Source: a virus
Lineage: Duplodnaviria; Heunggongvirae; Uroviricota; Caudoviricetes
IMG/VR virus record: IMGVR_UViG_2778261276_000004
Reading direction: 5' to 3' (one strand)
Length of the DNA: 5,063 nt
Shown one piece after another: positions 77 to 4,930 of the stretch. The position numbers and the translations under genes are program-made. The notes beneath the pieces were generated by a model. That model was not told where the DNA came from. It saw only the letters and a list, made by a program, of their open reading frames with translations, and searched no databases. Position 1 is the first letter of the stretch, and each line of letters starts with the position of its first letter.

Positions 77-1018
77 TCACCCCCTGAATCCTGCCGGGAT
101 CTGGCTGTAGTCCACATTGTCGTAACTGGCTTTGAAGTACGGGTCCTCGCGTTTTTCTGTGTGCGTGCTGACGGACGGCGATAAGCGCAGGGAAAGCTCA
201 TCCCATTTTTCCCGCAACTTCGACGGGCTGAGCACGTTACGGCACCAGAACGGATCGCGGCTGACGCGGCTGTACATCTCGCAGATTTGTTTGTGAGTAC
301 GACCATCCTGCACACACATCAGGCGAATTTCGTTTGCCCAGGCTGTCCAGTTAGGTTCTTTGGGACGAACCACCTCGCCGTCACATTCGGCGGCCTGCTC
401 GTACAGGGCGATGATTTTTTTCCAGAGCCACTGTGCGCAGGTCAAATCATCCTGCGTCCCCCACTGGCGCTTTTTAGGGCTGAATACAACCGCATCAGGA
501 TGGCGAGTTAAAAAATCCTGTTCATCCGTCTGCGTGTCCGGTTGCGAAGCGTCCGGACGAGAAGGTTTTTTATCTGACGGATCATGTTTTGATTTTACTG
601 ACGGATCCCCGCCAGATTCTGACGGGTGAAAACCCGCTTTTTTGCCAGATTTCGACGCATCAAATTTTGACGGGTCAGATTTTGATGCGTCAGATTTTGA
701 CGGGTCAGAATCTGACAGTTGAGAAAATGCCGCTGCCTGAAGCTTCGCAACGTTAAGCTGATAAACATTCGACGCATTGCGGTTACCCTGGCGACGCGCC
801 TTACGCGTTAACCAGCCTTCTGCTTCCAGCCGTGCGATAGCTGTCCTGACGGTACTCATCCCCGCGCCAATCTGGCGGGCAATGGTTTCAATTGATGGCC
901 AGCACACACCTTCGTCATTACTGAAATCAGCCAGGCGTGCCATAATTGCCACGCTGGATAATTTCATGCCTGACGCAGCGCAACCATCCCATACATAGCC
1001 GGTTAATTTAGTGCTCAT
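77..1018 (-). CDS. phage replication initiation protein, lambda O-like
   Basis: 313-aa ORF. The N-terminal ~95 aa (VAIMARLADFSNDEGVCWPSIETIARQIGAGMSTVRTAIARLEAEGWL) look like a winged-helix DNA-binding domain typical of phage/plasmid initiators. This is followed by a low-complexity Ser/Asp/Lys linker encoded by tandem DNA repeats and a C-terminal domain. GAGG sits 6 nt upstream of the ATG at 1018. It occupies the position after cro and cII in the early-right operon. Confidence 0.8.
   Translation of the reverse strand: MSTKLTGYVWDGCAASGMKLSSVAIMARLADFSNDEGVCWPSIETIARQIGAGMSTVRTAIARLEAEGWLTRKARRQGNRNASNVYQLNVAKLQAAAFSQLSDSDPSKSDASKSDPSKFDASKSGKKAGFHPSESGGDPSVKSKHDPSDKKPSRPDASQPDTQTDEQDFLTRHPDAVVFSPKKRQWGTQDDLTCAQWLWKKIIALYEQAAECDGEVVRPKEPNWTAWANEIRLMCVQDGRTHKQICEMYSRVSRDPFWCRNVLSPSKLREKWDELSLRLSPSVSTHTEKREDPYFKASYDNVDYSQIPAGFRG
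613..720. repeat. iteron-like tandem repeats inside the replication gene (candidate origin of replication)
   Basis: Five contiguous 15-bp units at 646-720 (cagatttcgacgcat / caaattttgacgggt / cagattttgatgcgt / cagattttgacgggt / cagaatctgacagtt), a further copy at 613-627 (cagattctgacgggt) and degenerate T(C/T)TGACGG cores at 573-580 and 597-604. An AT-rich stretch lies on the low-coordinate side (about 561-600). Lambda ori likewise lies inside gene O. Confidence 0.6.
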
Positions 1019-1027
1019 GACCGACCT

Positions 1028-1366
1028 CTATTTCCCTGAATTTACGACGAAACTGTTCGAGCGGGCTGAAGCACTCATGCTCATAGCCTTCACGGAGGTA
1101 GATAACCCGTTGTGTTTCCGGCTCCCAACGAATGACTCTGACGGGCACTCCGTAGTGATCTTTGAACCAGCGGTTAACTTGTCGCAAAGGACTGTCTCCT
1201 TCTGCCGGTTGAAATCACCCACAGCCCACTCAGCAAAGCTGTGGGTTACAATTTCCCTGTCACCTGGTACATTAACTGCATAGCAATACTCCACCTTCGC
1301 TTTTCCACCCGGTACAGGAAGTGCAATCAGTTGCGAGCGACGGTAGTGTGTTGTTAAACTGTTCAT
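1028..1366 (-). CDS. hypothetical protein; the 3' portion appears frame-disrupted or overlapped by a second small ORF
   Basis: ATG at 1366..1364 overlaps the TGA stop of the upstream CII-like gene (ATGA overlap). The N-terminal ~57 aa read as protein, but the C-terminal ~55 aa in this frame are Ser-rich and low-complexity. The frame shifted by one base is open from about 1208 to a TAA at 1010..1008 and reads as a balanced protein sequence (…[58 protein letters not shown]). Confidence 0.5.
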
Positions 1367-1932
1367 GCGTTAGTTTCTCCACAACCAGAAGCAATCGACG
1401 CCACGACGCCCGGAGCTGCACACTCGCGGGCGTCATTACTTTCTGAAATGCAAAAAATTTTGTAGACAAGTGCTGCATGCTCCTGCAGCTTCGAAATTGA
1501 GAGATACAGCTCGTCGTTAATTGCTGTCTTCTCATGCGGTTCCACTACACCGTCTTCGATTGCTGAACGAATCTGTTTTGAATAACTGCCGATCTGTTCA
1601 ATGACTTCCAGCAGACGCTGGTTAATATCGGCGTTGTCCACATCCTCGACGTTAGGAAGAGACACAAAGACGCCATTTGCAGACTGCGCCACAGCATCAG
1701 CAATGAAGTGAGTTCCACCAGCACGTTGCAAAATCATTGCCCATCCCAGCGGGAAAATCTGATCGCCATCAGCACGAAGGCGGTTAAATAATGCGTTCTC
1801 TGTTACATCCAGCCAGTCAGCTGCTTCAGCGTAACCACCCGGCAACTTTGCGATAGTTTTTCTGACAGCTTTCACGTACCACTCAGGCTGTTTTTCTACT
1901 TTCCAGTGATGCTTACCCACGGTTAGCCTCAT
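1363..1932 (-). CDS. CII-like transcriptional regulator (phage CP76 / YdaT-like family), tentative
   Basis: Gene immediately downstream of cro on the same strand. The ORF-track start at 2034 is a GTG that overlaps cro, so the true start is probably the ATG at 1932 or the GTG at 1920 (GAGG 6 nt upstream). Size and position fit the CII-type regulators of the 186/YdaT family; family assignment is from memory of the overall pattern, not a search. Confidence 0.55.
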
Positions 1933-1957
1933 CGTTCTGTGGTTTCTGTTAATCGAT

Positions 1958-2158
1958 TTATCCATTAGATTTTTCATAAAGCTCAGGTTTAAATGGCAAC
2001 CGTCCGCAAGTTCTATATGCAGCTTCTGCTGCACGTCCTTTTGGAATTAACTGGCCCGGACGGTTTCGCCACTGATAAACGGCTTCAGTTGTTATGCCGA
2101 AAAAAGCAGCAACTTTCTCAATACTGCCGAAGTAGCTTTCGATATCGTCAGTTGTCAT
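1958..2158 (-). CDS. cro: Cro-like HTH repressor (YdaS-like small DNA-binding protein)
   Basis: 66-aa ORF transcribed divergently from the repressor gene. GGAGG lies 4 nt upstream of the ATG at 2158. The motif VAAFFGITTEAVYQWRNRPGQLIPKGRAAEAAYRTCGRL resembles Cro/YdaS-type helix-turn-helix proteins. Confidence 0.8.
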   Translation of the reverse strand: MTTDDIESYFGSIEKVAAFFGITTEAVYQWRNRPGQLIPKGRAAEAAYRTCGRLPFKPELYEKSNG

Positions 2159-2255: not shown

Positions 2256-2882
2256 ATGGAAACGGTTGGTCAGCGTATAAAAGCTCTGAGAAGAGTTACC
2301 AGAACGTCCCAGAAAGAATTGGGTAAATTTTGTGGAGTAAGCGACGTTGCTGTGGGGTACTGGGAGAAAGACATCAATACCCCTGGTGGGGAGGCACTTT
2401 CGAAATTAGCGAAGTTCTTCAATACGTCAATAGATTACATTCTTTATGGTGCTGAGTTTGAAGGCAAACTCGTCACAAACATGCGCAGAGTTCCTGTAAT
2501 ATCGTGGGTTCAGGCTGGGCAGTTTACTGAGTGCAGGGCAGCAGAAGTGTTTAGTGAAGTGGACAAGTGGGTAGATACATCATTAAAGATTGGTGATAAC
2601 TCATTTGCATTAGAGGTTAAAGGTGACTCCATGACTAACCCTAATGGCCTCCCAACAATACCAGAAGGCGCAACAGTGATTGTAGATCCAGATGCAGAAC
2701 CTCGTCATGGAAAAATAGTAATCGCTCGACTTGATGGAACAAACGAAGCTACAGTAAAAAAATTAGTCATCGATGGCCCTCAAAAGTTTTTAGTGCCATT
2801 AAATCCTCGGTATCCCAACATCCCTATCAATGGTAATTGCCTTATCATTGGTGTAGTCAAAGGAGTTCAATACGAACTCTAA
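2256..2882 (+). CDS. cI: CI-like prophage repressor (XRE-type HTH plus LexA-like S24 autopeptidase domain)
   Basis: 208-aa ORF. N-terminal HTH (QRIKALRRVTRTSQKELGKFCGVSDVAVGYWE). C-terminal domain has the catalytic Ser in GDSM and a Lys in ATVKKL, with a candidate Ala-Gly cleavage site in SWVQAGQF. Divergent from cro. Confidence 0.9.
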   Translation: METVGQRIKALRRVTRTSQKELGKFCGVSDVAVGYWEKDINTPGGEALSKLAKFFNTSIDYILYGAEFEGKLVTNMRRVPVISWVQAGQFTECRAAEVFSEVDKWVDTSLKIGDNSFALEVKGDSMTNPNGLPTIPEGATVIVDPDAEPRHGKIVIARLDGTNEATVKKLVIDGPQKFLVPLNPRYPNIPINGNCLIIGVVKGVQYEL

Positions 2883-3067
2883 GACCTCTCTTCTCTAACT
2901 AAGGCACCGAACTAAGAAAAGTTTGGTGTTTTCTCTTGCCATAATAACTAAGTTAAGTTAGATTTTATATCAAAGATAACGAACAGGCAGGACGCCCACG
3001 AAGTAGCCGCCTGGGGCATATGAAGTCCAGGATGATTCGTTGAGTCATGTTGTGCCACTAGGCACTC
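2883..3067 (+). promoter_or_regulatory. OL/PL-like operator-promoter region downstream of cI
   Basis: AACTAAG recurs at 2897-2903, 2910-2916 and 2946-2952. The 14-mer ctaagttaagttag (2948-2961) matches the OR site ctaagttttattag at 11 of 14 positions. Plus-strand promoter candidate: -35 TTGCCA (2936-2941), 17-bp spacer, -10 TAGATT (2959-2964), with the operator overlapping spacer and -10. Hairpins at 3015-3036 (CCTGG...CCAGG) and 3052-3065 (GTGCC-acta-GGCAC) lie in the leader. Confidence 0.45.
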
Positions 3068-3088
3068 ATGTTAAAGCAGGTGTATGAA

Positions 3089-3364
3089 ATGAAAGTCCAG
3101 ATTTTAAACAATAACTGTGAAGTCGTTTGGTCATACGACATAGCCGCCCCTGTAGATCAGAGCGGCGATAGCTGGACCAATGGGAAACATCAGATTATGG
3201 CTGGAGTTGTGTTCTCTTTACGCCGTGCTTTGGAACAGGCTGAAGTATTTCCATCAGACCCTGAATGGAAATGGCCTTTTTCTATTTGTCCAAATTCGGA
3301 GAGCACATTTCAGAAAATTGGTCAGAAAGTCGCACTCGAAGAGCATCAGCCAACTGTTTCCTGA
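3089..3364 (+). CDS. hypothetical small protein, first ORF of the early-left transcript
   Basis: ORF track gives 3068..3364. The ATG at 3089 is preferred because AGGTG (3078-3082) lies 6 nt upstream. No arginine-rich motif, so it does not look like an N-type antiterminator. The 3' end overlaps the convergent ORF at 3282..3527 by 83 nt, so one of the two may not be real. Confidence 0.4.
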   Translation: MKVQILNNNCEVVWSYDIAAPVDQSGDSWTNGKHQIMAGVVFSLRRALEQAEVFPSDPEWKWPFSICPNSESTFQKIGQKVALEEHQPTVS

Positions 3365-3527
3365 TTTTTTCAGGTAACTCGTCGGCATCGCAGAAACAAC
3401 AACGCTCGATCATGTTGAAAGCCGATTCGTAGAACTGTTTCTGCTGAGTGTCGCTGAGACAGGAAAAGAGCGACGTTACGATGATTTTATTAATTGCATT
3501 ATCAAGTTCTTTTTCATCAAAAGTCAT
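3282..3527 (-). CDS. hypothetical small protein (81 aa), convergent to the early-left transcript
   Basis: Strong RBS on the minus strand (AAGGAAAA, about 5 nt before the ATG at 3527). Translation is protein-like (MTFDEKELDNAINKIIVTSLFSCLSDTQQKQFYESAFNMIERCCFCDADELPEKIRKQLADALRVRLSDQFSEMCSPNLDK). AT-rich codon usage suggests an acquired accessory gene. Confidence 0.5.
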   Translation of the reverse strand: MTFDEKELDNAINKIIVTSLFSCLSDTQQKQFYESAFNMIERCCFCDADELPEKIRKQLADALRVRLSDQFSEMCSPNLDK

Positions 3528-3699
3528 TTGATTTTCCTTTTATGTATACGGGCTTAAAAGGATACCACCGAGCCTGAAGTGGTGAAAAGACAGGCACATA
3601 ACAGCTAAGTATTTTCAACCAAAGAGAATCCTTAGCGTTGTGGTGAATGCGGCTCAGCGCACGCGGGTTAAGGTTGAGGCTGACAGTCGACCTTCTGTG

Positions 3700-3827
3700 G
3701 ATACCCACCCGCCTGGTGTGCAACCTTCGCCAGGCACCGGGAGGCACCCGGCACCACAACTTTATGCTGTGTGTAGTCTTGGCGGTACCAGTTTGTACCC
3801 TTGCTTCCGGCTGGTATCGCCCTTTTT
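3700..3827 (+). ncRNA. candidate small RNA ending at an intrinsic terminator (possibly DicF-like); 5' boundary undefined
   Basis: GC-rich, hairpin-rich segment with no protein-like ORF on either strand. GGCGGTACCAGTTTGTACCC (3781-3800) resembles, from memory, the GGCGGTATCAGTTTTACTCC segment of E. coli DicF. Its location in the early-left operon of a lambdoid prophage matches where dicF sits in the Qin prophage. Confidence 0.3.
3781..3827 (+). terminator. Rho-independent terminator (plus strand)
   Basis: Stem GGCGGTACCAG (3781-3791) pairs with CTGGTATCGCC (3811-3821), 11 bp including one G-U pair, with a 19-nt loop. It is followed by C then TTTTT (3823-3827). Confidence 0.55.
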
Positions 3828-4040
3828 ACAAAACAGAGAAGAGCATCACCGGACGACGGGCTTATAACCCAATCCATCCGGGCGGCTGCTACCGCAGGTG
3901 TTCTTCTCTGTTTTGTGGAGAAACTAACTGCCCCTGCGGGGGCATTTATGGAAATGTAATTGACTCAATAATCGCCGGACGGTGAGGGCTTCCTTTTACC
4001 CGAATTCAGCGCGGTGCAGCGCATATACGTGGAGAACAAA

Positions 4041-4577
4041 ATGTCATTTATTAAAACTTTTTCCGGGAAGCATTTTTATTATGACAGGATAAATAAAGAC
4101 GACATCGTTATTAACGATATCGCGGTTTCCCTTTCAAATATCTGTCGCTTTGCAGGACATCTTTCACACTTCTACAGTGTCGCCCAACATGCGGTGCTTT
4201 GCAGCCAGCTGGTGCCACAGGAATTTGCTTTTGAAGCTTTAATGCATGATGCAACAGAAGCATATTGCCAGGACATCCCCGCACCACTGAAACGACTTCT
4301 TCCTGACTATAAACGGATGGAAGAAAAAATAGACGCCGTAATCCGTGAGAAATACGGGTTACCTCCTGTTATGAGCACGCCAGTGAAATATGCCGATCTC
4401 ATTATGCTGGCAACCGAACGCCGCGATCTCGGGCTTGATGATGGCTCTTTCTGGCCTGTACTGGAAGGTATCCCGGCAACAGAGATGTTCAAAGTGATTC
4501 CACAGGCACCGGGCCATGCCTACGGGATGTTTATGGAACGTTTTAACGAGTTATCGGAGTTACGCAAATGCGCATGA
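4041..4577 (+). CDS. yfdR: HD-domain phosphohydrolase, YfdR-like 5'-deoxynucleotidase
   Basis: HD motif visible (FYSVAQHAVLCSQL ... EALMHDATEAYCQDIP). The ORF track begins at a GTG at 4014; the ATG at 4041 with GGAG 6 nt upstream gives 178 aa. Gene name is from memory of the K-12 CPS-53 prophage HD-domain protein, not from a search. Confidence 0.8.
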   Translation: MSFIKTFSGKHFYYDRINKDDIVINDIAVSLSNICRFAGHLSHFYSVAQHAVLCSQLVPQEFAFEALMHDATEAYCQDIPAPLKRLLPDYKRMEEKIDAVIREKYGLPPVMSTPVKYADLIMLATERRDLGLDDGSFWPVLEGIPATEMFKVIPQAPGHAYGMFMERFNELSELRKCA

Positions 4578-4930
4578 ATGTTTTCGAAATGGAAGGGTTT
4601 CTTCGTGGGAGATGTGTACCGCGAGATCTGAAAGTGAATGAAACAGATGCTGAATACCTGGTGCGTAAATTCGATGCGCTTGAAGCTAAATGTGCAGCAC
4701 AGGAAAACAAAGTAATACCAGTGTCAACTGAACTGCCACCAGCAAATGAAAGTGTTTTGTTATTCGATGCTAACGGAGAAGGCTGGCTAATTGGCTGGCG
4801 TTCTCTCTGGTACACCTGGGGACAAAAAGAAACCGGAGAATGGCAGTGGACATTTCAGGTCGGGGACCTTGAAAACGTCAATATCACTCACTGGGCAGTA
4901 ATGCCAAAAGCACCGGAGGCTGGAGCATAA
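4568..4930 (+). CDS. yfdS: hypothetical protein (120 aa), YfdS-like by position and length
   Basis: ATG at 4568 with GGAG 8 nt upstream; overlaps the stop of the HD-domain gene by 10 nt. Translation is protein-like. The name rests only on recalled synteny and size in K-12 CPS-53. Confidence 0.65.
   Translation: MRMNVFEMEGFLRGRCVPRDLKVNETDAEYLVRKFDALEAKCAAQENKVIPVSTELPPANESVLLFDANGEGWLIGWRSLWYTWGQKETGEWQWTFQVGDLENVNITHWAVMPKAPEAGA

Follow-up and report, generated by a model that had tools for sequence, protein, structure and literature searches.

Convergent, 3'-overlapping small genes in the immunity region of an SfV-like lambdoid prophage: evidence for two co-inherited genes and a possible lysogenic/lytic toggle

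The stretch of viral DNA considered here, 5,063 nucleotides (nt) of IMG/VR record IMGVR_UViG_2778261276_000004 and referred to as the window, is recognizable from its sequence as the immunity region of an SfV-like lambdoid prophage. Positions 2978-3941 are 98.5% identical to phage SfV (NC_003444, 24640-25603), and in a RefSeq genome carrying a 99.1% identical copy xis, int and tRNA-Thr/proA come next. Downstream of the cI-type repressor gene, two small open reading frames (ORFs) face each other and overlap at their 3' ends (Table 1). A first-pass annotation of the letters had described them as a plus-strand ORF of about 91 amino acids (aa) and an 81-aa minus-strand ORF with a strong ribosome-binding site (RBS), sharing 83 nt, and the ORF listing and the sequence agree with this description. 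Its view that the two mRNAs would be antisense to each other also holds, as the coding sequences (CDSs) converge and share these 83 nt, so that the mRNAs overlap if both are made. The pair does lie downstream of cI, as was also stated there, but it is not directly attached to it, since a terminator and a candidate early-left promoter with its operator (pL/oL) intervene. Below, we provide evidence that both ORFs are genes inherited together, and we weigh what their arrangement may mean.

The full open frame of the plus-strand ORF comprises 3068-3364 (98 aa), and 91 aa are encoded from an internal ATG at 3089. Sequence comparison identifies the latter as the true start, because homology between lineages begins only ~15-20 nt before that ATG and because the NCBI Prokaryotic Genome Annotation Pipeline (PGAP) calls the 91-aa form. 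Existing annotations each recognize one member of the pair: the SfV record and PGAP annotate the plus-strand ORF and leave the minus-strand ORF uncalled, and the annotation of phage SKA5 contains the minus-strand ORF only. The two proteins belong to separate PHROG families, both of unknown function.

Word-indexed searches returned mostly near-identical E. coli proteins and some contigs with diverged copies; further lineages came from an exhaustive phmmer search and a profile search. Altogether, seven lineages carry the pair, namely W (the window type), L005, L090, L105, L116, L108 and the Salmonella lineage L114/L115. Both ORFs are open in all seven, and the distance from ATG to ATG is exactly 439 nt throughout, with no insertions or deletions. 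Accordingly, the alignment of the window with L005/L090, at ~67% nucleotide identity, is gap-free from the plus-strand ATG to the minus-strand ATG. Between groups, pairs of lineages share 56-76% identity at the nucleotide level, 45-68% in the plus-strand protein and 42-70% in the minus-strand protein, and for the close pairs L005/L090 and L105/L116 all three values are 89-95%. Members of the minus-strand family extend down to 35-41% identity and then occupy other genomic contexts. Intact ORFs were found at 83 of 85 W-type loci, a biased set that was used for intactness only, its IMG/VR members having been picked by best identity of the minus-strand protein. In two Logan assemblies (L003, 66-353; L004, 1713-2000) two different one-base frameshifts disrupt the plus-strand gene next to a 100% identical minus-strand protein, which reflects either real pseudogenisation of the plus-strand gene or assembly errors.

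The pattern of substitutions indicates that both ORFs are genuine genes that are under purifying selection and co-inherited. When the window is aligned with L005/L090, the differences in 3089-3281 distribute 17/7/37 over plus-strand codon positions 1/2/3, and those in 3365-3527 distribute 15/30/4, plus-strand position 2 being position 3 of the minus-strand frame. Outside the overlap, the proportions of non-synonymous and synonymous differences (pN and pS; Nei-Gojobori method, NG86) are 0.18 and 0.86 for the plus-strand gene and 0.18 and 0.83 for the minus-strand gene, a ratio of ~0.2 for both. Four of the five control frames per region yielded pN/pS ratios of at least 0.7 (up to ~7); one antisense control frame per region was also low (0.21-0.32), but its pS was lower. 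Sliding pN/pS analysis of ten lineage pairs revealed constraint on the plus-strand frame over nt 1-210 of the module (0.29-0.39) and on the minus-strand frame over nt 271-439 (0.19-0.35), the two frames crossing at ~3290-3350, where the substitutions change over from plus- to minus-strand third positions. Over all pairwise core comparisons of either gene, pN/pS ranges from 0.24 to 0.59, that is 0.24-0.45 for nt 1-210 of the plus-strand gene, which rises to at least 1 past nt 211, and 0.25-0.59 for the minus-strand gene. These values together with the phase switch rule out the suggestion of the first-pass annotation that one of the ORFs could be an artefact that overlies an antisense RNA. In the comparison with homologous prophages that it had proposed as a check, both ORFs proved to be conserved with coding-type substitutions and open in the relatives, rather than one alone being conserved or both being absent or interrupted.

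Constraint within the 83-nt overlap is one-sided: between the window and L005/L090, the ratio of non-synonymous to synonymous substitution rates (dN/dS) is 0.29-0.41 in the minus-strand frame and 1.1-1.3 in the plus-strand frame. Conservation of the plus-strand protein is confined to a core of approximately aa 1-70/84, and the C-terminal ~27 aa are unconstrained. Since the plus-strand frame is unconstrained in the overlap, its stop codon wanders, being codon 92, 94, 108 or 123 depending on the lineage, and because this stop moves, the length of the overlap varies between 74 and 173 nt. The comparison thereby marks the long overlap as largely an unconstrained C-terminal read-on of the plus-strand ORF into the minus-strand gene.

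Transcription of the two genes appears to be driven from different sources. The repressor gene is followed by a predicted rho-independent terminator that would end the cI transcript, and the SfV record lists a putative rho-independent terminator at the equivalent position. Next to it, a promoter-like sequence is covered by an operator repeat that is 81-83% identical to the two copies between cro and cI (2169-2186 and 2213-2233), and we read this arrangement as a candidate pL/oL. By its position, the plus-strand gene is the first gene behind this candidate pL, i.e. it is in the N position and outside the cI operon. The DNA preceding it differs among lineages and consists of the pL leader in W, L090 and L114, of another gene in L005 and of a terminator in L108; in L105/L116 pL itself is located ~40 nt before the plus-strand ATG and has the form TTGACA-18-TACATT in L105. 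As inter-lineage homology starts only 15-20 nt 5' of this ATG and the DNA beyond differs, the plus-strand gene seems to bring no promoter of its own. W, L090 and Salmonella L114 have a conserved pL-leader block (2981-3060, GAACAGGCAGGACGCCCACGAAGTAGCCGCC...) 5' of the plus-strand gene, whereas L105/L116 have it beyond the opposite end of the cassette, 5' of the promoter of the minus-strand gene; the insertion point of the cassette relative to the block thus differs between lineages. In the Salmonella loci L114 (1552-2706) and L115 (375-1529), a 384-aa HSDR_N-domain protein is encoded directly after the repressor, on the same strand and upstream of the pair, which is a rexAB-type position.

The minus-strand gene, by comparison of the loci, is accompanied by a promoter-like motif of its own and by a strong Shine-Dalgarno sequence, and it points against the candidate pL. 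An equivalent of the latter, AAGGAAA, is present in all lineages and in other cassettes of the same slot (see below). The pattern TTN[AG]CC-N16-TANN[CT]T occurs once per locus, with both strands scanned, in seven loci among those scanned. In loci of minus-strand homologues the motif keeps the same distance to the ATG (31-33 nt) and the hexamers TT(A/C)ACC and TA..CT, with a 15-nt spacer in L105/L116; the distance is fixed in all lineages except L113. It is also present in the otherwise non-homologous upstream DNA of the distant minus-strand homologues L108, L104 and L111. One extra, unrelated match to the pattern lies in e14 (L096, 4319-4292), and L108 has a second match (4591-4618) far from the gene. 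A 32-nt sequence designated the sieB-type element includes the -35 hexamer and spacer of the motif. It is identical upstream of the minus-strand gene in L005, of e14 ymfI and of SfII_36, and matches in 29 of 32 positions in Salmonella L114/L115. In P22 and a lambda-like phage, a sequence that precedes sieB by ~74 nt agrees with it in 30 of 32 positions. This element and the gene order of P22 place the minus-strand gene in the sieB slot. A conserved CCAC..GTGG hairpin (3565-3583) was considered as a terminator or RNA element and dismissed, as lineage comparison shows it to be the spacer of the bipartite promoter-like motif. Past the minus-strand stop, the sole terminator-like site on that strand is weak (2999-2983), and the same element lies across the cassette in L105.

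Table 1. Features of the 5,063-nt window, in order of position
Feature	Position	Strand	Basis and remarks
O-like replication gene	77-1018	-	ORF listing and profile searches (Pfam, PHROGs)
DUF4222 gene	1008-1187	-	Pfam, 67 bits
cII-like/YmfL gene	1363-2034	-	ORF listing and profile searches
cro	1958-2158	-	ORF listing and profile searches
cI-type repressor gene (HTH_3 + Peptidase_S24)	2256-2882	+	PF00717 9e-28, PF01381 1e-9
Rho-independent terminator, ends cI transcript (predicted)	2904-2937	+	Stem GCACCGAAC / GTTTGGTGT, then TTTCTCTT; read from sequence
Candidate early-left promoter pL, TTGCCA-17-TAGATT	2936-2964	+	Promoter scan, 9/12
Operator copy oL, AACTAAGTTAAGTTAGAT	2946-2963	+	Overlaps candidate pL
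Plus-strand gene, 91 aa	3089-3364	+	SfV orf33; phrog_3195 at 6e-70
3' overlap of the CDSs	3282-3364	both	83 nt
Minus-strand gene, 81 aa	3282-3527	-	phrog_3311 at 1e-55
Shine-Dalgarno sequence of the minus-strand gene, AAGGAAAA	reverse complement of 3532-3539	-	4 nt 5' of ATG; read from sequence
Promoter-like motif TTCACC-16-TATCCT	3586-3559	-	-10 end 31 nt before ATG; putative, from sequence
sieB-type upstream element, TGCCTGTCTTTTCACCACTTCAGGCTCGGTGG, 32 nt	3565-3596	-	Contains -35 hexamer and spacer of the motif
STnc100-like structured RNA region	3615-3830	+	Rfam RF02076, 41.7 bits (gathering 47), E = 9.5e-7
yfdR-like 5'-deoxynucleotidase gene	4014-4577	+	ORF listing and profile searches
DUF551 gene	4568-4930	+	ORF listing and profile searches

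The two genes are also linked in their distribution. Every minus-strand homologue that is at least 50% identical to the window protein has a plus-strand partner at the same 439-nt spacing. In lineage L108, the pair resides beside holin genes in the late-gene region and not next to a repressor; here as well, the plus-strand gene is co-directional with the lytic genes and the minus-strand gene opposes them, and the plus-strand gene is complete, with start codon and RBS, at a pN/pS of 0.29-0.45. Distant minus-strand homologues (35-41% identity) stand alone, between Q and holin or in an accessory-rich cluster and antisense to lytic genes, and L104, L111 and L113 contain a family member without a plus-strand homologue. 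Accessory cargo is found nearby in some of these relatives, namely a Fic/PhD pair in L108 and HicAB in L113. As the distant minus-strand homologues are alone and the closer ones are always paired, the minus-strand gene appears to behave as an autonomous accessory gene, and the plus-strand gene as its dependent partner in the closer lineages. The 439-nt module, at a coverage of at least 80%, is present in 425 of 5,426 complete E. coli genomes (~8%), and most of these copies are at least 98% identical. Of 50,697 phage records, no more than three contain it, namely SfV, vB_EcoM-720R4 and SKA5, and no copy was found in a scan of the GTDB species representatives. Some E. coli genomes (H138-H140, e.g. 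NZ_CP048934.1, 892375-892576) carry only module nt 238-439 beside a phage tail protein gene; this fragment amounts to the 5' two-thirds of the minus-strand gene with its start and probably represents a recombination junction.

The first-pass annotation had regarded the place next to the repressor as a spot for accessory genes, and this is borne out by the observation that at least four different cassettes are found between the same flanks, with the pL leader forming the left flank and the promoter element with an STnc100-like RNA the right one. In e14, ymfJ (plus strand) and ymfI (minus strand) converge with a 63-nt 3' overlap. SfIV, phage Kati and many E. coli prophages carry a cassette in which a 68-aa plus-strand gene and a minus-strand gene of the ECs1072 family overlap by 29 nt at their 3' ends, and SfII contains a lone 63-aa minus-strand gene (SfII_36). 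Occupied slots, all behind the same promoter element, were recorded in L096 (2875-3462; e14), L101 (1448-2060), L098, L099 and L100 (1531-1722). YmfJ, YmfI and a 105-aa protein of L005 lack similarity to either protein of the window pair, and the ECs1072 cassettes likewise share slot, flanks and convergent 3'-overlapping layout with the window but encode proteins that have no homology to its pair. In the SOS response of E. coli, ymfJ rises late (log2 fold change 4.8), as do other e14 early genes, and ymfI changes little (PMC11002266); ymfI-ymfJ and sieB-ydaF of the Rac prophage are both among the convergent excludons in the 'excludome' of MG1655 (PMC12288877). For the window pair, these expression data and this listing provide an analogy. 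In the literature we found nothing on SfV orf33 and, as to the function of E. coli ymfI/ymfJ, nothing beyond expression lists. In L105 (1953-2826), a second convergent pair directly follows the first: a 193-aa gene in the direction of pL and an opposing 78/105-aa gene overlap by 26 nt.

The closest precedents for the arrangement are the P22 gene 24/sieB-esc and lambda N/sieB loci, in which repressor, pL, plus-strand gene, convergent minus-strand gene and the rest of the left operon follow in the same order. The P22 order of c2, gene 24 (plus), sieB (minus, convergent), 32-nt element and ral is matched by the window and also by the lambda-like locus. According to work by Ranade and Poteete of 1993, SieB is reportedly made in the lysogen and P22 is said to escape it by means of Esc and the sas antisense RNA. 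The window differs from these systems in several respects. Its minus-strand protein has no homology to SieB in Pfam, PHROG, NCBIfam and PDB searches and is much shorter (81 versus ~190 aa, ~192 by another count), and its proteins lack sequence similarity to Esc, N and gp24. An N-type antiterminator was not recognized in the plus-strand gene either: the N terminus, MKVQILNNN, contains no arginine cluster, the isoelectric point (pI) is 5.0-6.7, and no antiterminator of Pfam or PHROG matched. Gene 24 and sieB are separated by a 20-nt gap, whereas the CDSs of the pair overlap in all of its lineages. Moreover, escape of P22 relies on an internal start and an RNA, whereas the putative escape partner in the window is a separate protein. 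Excludons, too, are convergent, and the pair would resemble them in having one partner under a strong, regulated promoter and the other under a weaker promoter that looks constitutive; they are, however, defined by their transcripts, and the overlap of the pair includes coding DNA of both genes. BstA/aba of BTP1 and rexAB of lambda share with the pair the location in an accessory hot spot beside the repressor (PMC7067206) and the same hypothesis, that is a factor expressed in the lysogen combined with a phage-borne way round it. Yet bstA and rexAB are co-transcribed with cI, whereas in the window a terminator and the candidate pL lie in between and the gene of the lysogen side is encoded on the other strand; homology of the pair to BstA or RexAB was not detected, and PADLOC was negative. 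The rexAB analogy drawn in the first-pass annotation is therefore imprecise, the plus-strand gene being in the N position. Finally, the minus-strand gene resembles a moron in that it has a (putative) promoter-like motif of its own and in that cassettes replace one another among similar phages.

The proteins themselves offer few clues to function. That neither is recognizable, as noted at first sight, was upheld by the profile searches proposed then: when the two proteins and their homologues were compared, singly and as profiles, with Pfam, PHROGs, NCBIfam, PADLOC and PDB sequences, only phrog_3195 and phrog_3311 matched. Both proteins appear soluble, with a maximal Kyte-Doolittle hydropathy below 0.9 in any 19-residue window, and no transmembrane segment was found in the minus-strand protein. 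The latter is acidic in all lineages (pI 4.4-5.0), and the plus-strand core has the pI given above. A CCxC motif of the minus-strand protein is not conserved across the family. Structure prediction, likewise proposed at the outset, did return folds, albeit of low confidence. AlphaFold2, working from shallow alignments, modelled the minus-strand protein as three helices (H5-23, H26-44, H53-74) with a predicted local distance difference test score (pLDDT) of 62, and the plus-strand protein as two strands and two helices with a pLDDT of 52; Foldseek comparison of these weak models with BFVD gave no match at E <= 0.001.

How could such a pair work? On balance, we lean towards the view that it is a genuine co-inherited convergent cassette in the N/sieB slot that acts as a lysogeny-ON/lytic-ON toggle resembling an excludon, possibly providing exclusion together with self-immunity. 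In the lysogen, pL would be repressed and only the minus-strand gene transcribed, its RNA running antisense across the plus-strand gene. Upon repressor cleavage or infection, strong transcription from pL would produce the plus-strand protein, and polymerases arriving from pL would cross the minus-strand gene and its promoter, which may thus be shut off by transcriptional interference and antisense pairing. Silencing by convergent transcription is the established logic of convergent promoters and excludons. It is the opposition of a pL repressed in the lysogen and a self-promoted minus-strand gene that suggests the toggle, and the same polarity relative to lytic transcription in both genomic contexts, next to the repressor and next to the holin genes in L108, counts in its favour. 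Most speculative are the roles of the products: the minus-strand protein could be a prophage accessory factor, most likely for superinfection exclusion or abortive infection, and the plus-strand protein the early antidote or escape function of the phage, comparable to Esc/sas versus SieB in P22. An exclusion-type role, also raised in the first-pass annotation, is the most plausible guess for the pair. Several points weigh against the toggle and the roles attached to it. A generic promoter scan (threshold 9/12) detected nothing on the minus strand upstream of the minus-strand gene, the motif reaches only 8/12 relative to the sigma-70 consensus, and its counterpart in P22 and lambda has a poor -10 sequence (TTCTCG), the -10-like hexamer not being conserved there. 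The plus-strand family was searched by the word-indexed method only, which could miss plus-strand genes without partner, and co-inheritance could in part reflect the physical overlap and not a functional link. Exclusion and antidote roles are deduced from position and polarity; the searches with both proteins gave neither homology nor a defence-profile match, the predicted folds are not confident, and the minus-strand protein is soluble and acidic and lacks sequence similarity to SieB.

In place of a toggle, the two genes may be functionally unrelated neighbours joined by no more than the 3' overlap, the plus-strand gene being an early pL gene for host takeover or anti-defence and the minus-strand gene a moron, in a convergent arrangement without regulatory purpose. 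We consider this possible though unlikely. It would account for the minus-strand family members without plus-strand homologue in L104, L111 and L113, for a promoterless plus-strand gene beside an autonomous minus-strand gene, for the shortness of the truly double-constrained stretch with its unconstrained plus-strand tail, and for the other, unrelated gene pairs in the same slot. However, mere neighbours would hardly be expected to move together as in L108, where the complete plus-strand gene has accompanied the minus-strand gene and is still under purifying selection, nor to keep exactly the same spacing in every minus-strand homologue of at least 50% identity and the same polarity to lytic transcription in both contexts. 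Beyond the toggle, the pair might even constitute a portable unit of defence and self-immunity, in which the minus-strand protein, produced in the lysogen from its own promoter, would act by a new mechanism against superinfecting phages, by blocking or aborting them, or against a host target. The plus-strand protein would serve as the specific antidote, produced only upon read-in from a lytic promoter, and the 439-bp geometry would hard-wire the switch; this, too, we hold to be unlikely.

A toxin-antitoxin or addiction module, in which one product is toxic, the partner protein or antisense RNA neutralizes it and the prophage is stabilized, was also suggested by the first-pass annotation. Two small genes that are co-inherited at fixed spacing would fit, as would the accessory cargo near some relatives, and some type I toxin-antitoxin systems likewise consist of convergent genes that overlap at their 3' ends. 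Nevertheless, we judge such a module improbable. Type II systems are co-directional, autoregulated operons, whereas the pair is convergent in all seven lineages, and searches of toxin and antitoxin families in Pfam, of NCBIfam, of PADLOC and of PDB profiles, defence systems included, were negative. A type I system would comprise a hydrophobic toxin and a non-coding partner, whereas neither protein is hydrophobic and both partners are proteins under selection. In addition, the minus-strand family also occurs without plus-strand partner, and frameshifted plus-strand variants (possibly assembly errors) stand beside an intact minus-strand gene in L003 and L004. That only one of the ORFs is a gene and the other a chance antisense open frame, perhaps marking a non-coding antisense RNA, is scarcely credible, even though pipelines call just one of the two and the C-terminal tail of the plus-strand ORF is unconstrained. 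At least ~190 nt of each ORF lie beyond the overlap, and there synonymous change in its own frame is saturated, non-synonymous change is low and pS is the highest; both stay open in seven lineages at 42-70% aa identity, and minus-strand family members persist at 35-41% identity in other contexts.

The architecture as such, i.e. a first pL gene converging on a gene expressed from the prophage, is already known from sieB of P22 and lambda. New is the 81-aa gene, which is under clear purifying selection, occurs in ~8% of complete E. coli genomes and has remained unannotated because pipelines drop it on account of the overlap. Likewise new are an indel-free two-gene unit that has moved between two phage regions with its polarity to lytic transcription preserved, and a predicted promoter element shared by unrelated genes of the slot, sieB among them. 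We found no description in the literature of the gene pair, its rigid portable form or the shared promoter element. If the toggle of exclusion factor and antidote is real, it would offer a new, compact model of how a prophage escapes the defences that it carries itself, and ymfJ/ymfI of K-12 and the ECs1072 family of pathogenic E. coli and Shigella phages would be candidates of the same kind. If, on the other hand, the pair is a defence and self-immunity unit, ymfJ/ymfI and the ECs1072 pair would be analogous systems and the slot would harbour a family of 'toggle' defence modules.

The right flank of the slot is constant: the STnc100-like region, which ends in a hairpin and T-tract (3781-3828) within a conserved block reaching to ~3945, is kept in e14 (as 'ymfH'), SfII, SfIV and ECs1072-type prophages. 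It is ~91% identical to the DNA under e14 'ymfH', and PGAP places a frameshifted pseudogene over it; both ORF calls are probably spurious. An antiterminator RNA of the HK022 put type was considered for this region and discarded, as there is no similarity to HK022 24-32 kb. Just past its terminator, a 25-nt inverted repeat (3828-3852/3892-3916; 84% complementary, arms 39 nt apart) is followed by a GC hairpin (GCCCCTGCGGGGGC, 3929-3944), and both are conserved in e14, SfII and L090.

Of the remaining genes, the repressor is labelled cI or LexA family in the SfV and RefSeq annotations. On the minus strand, the DUF4222 gene and a YmfM-like ORF (1028-1366; 112 aa; phrog_1170, 235 bits) overlap by 160 nt in different frames of the same strand; PGAP calls the DUF4222 protein only, and SKA5 the YmfM-like protein only. 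Tandem, partly palindromic GATTTTGACGGGTCAGA-like units at 595-720 within the O-like gene are probably origin iterons, and a spurious Rfam match to mir-5880 arises from these repeats.

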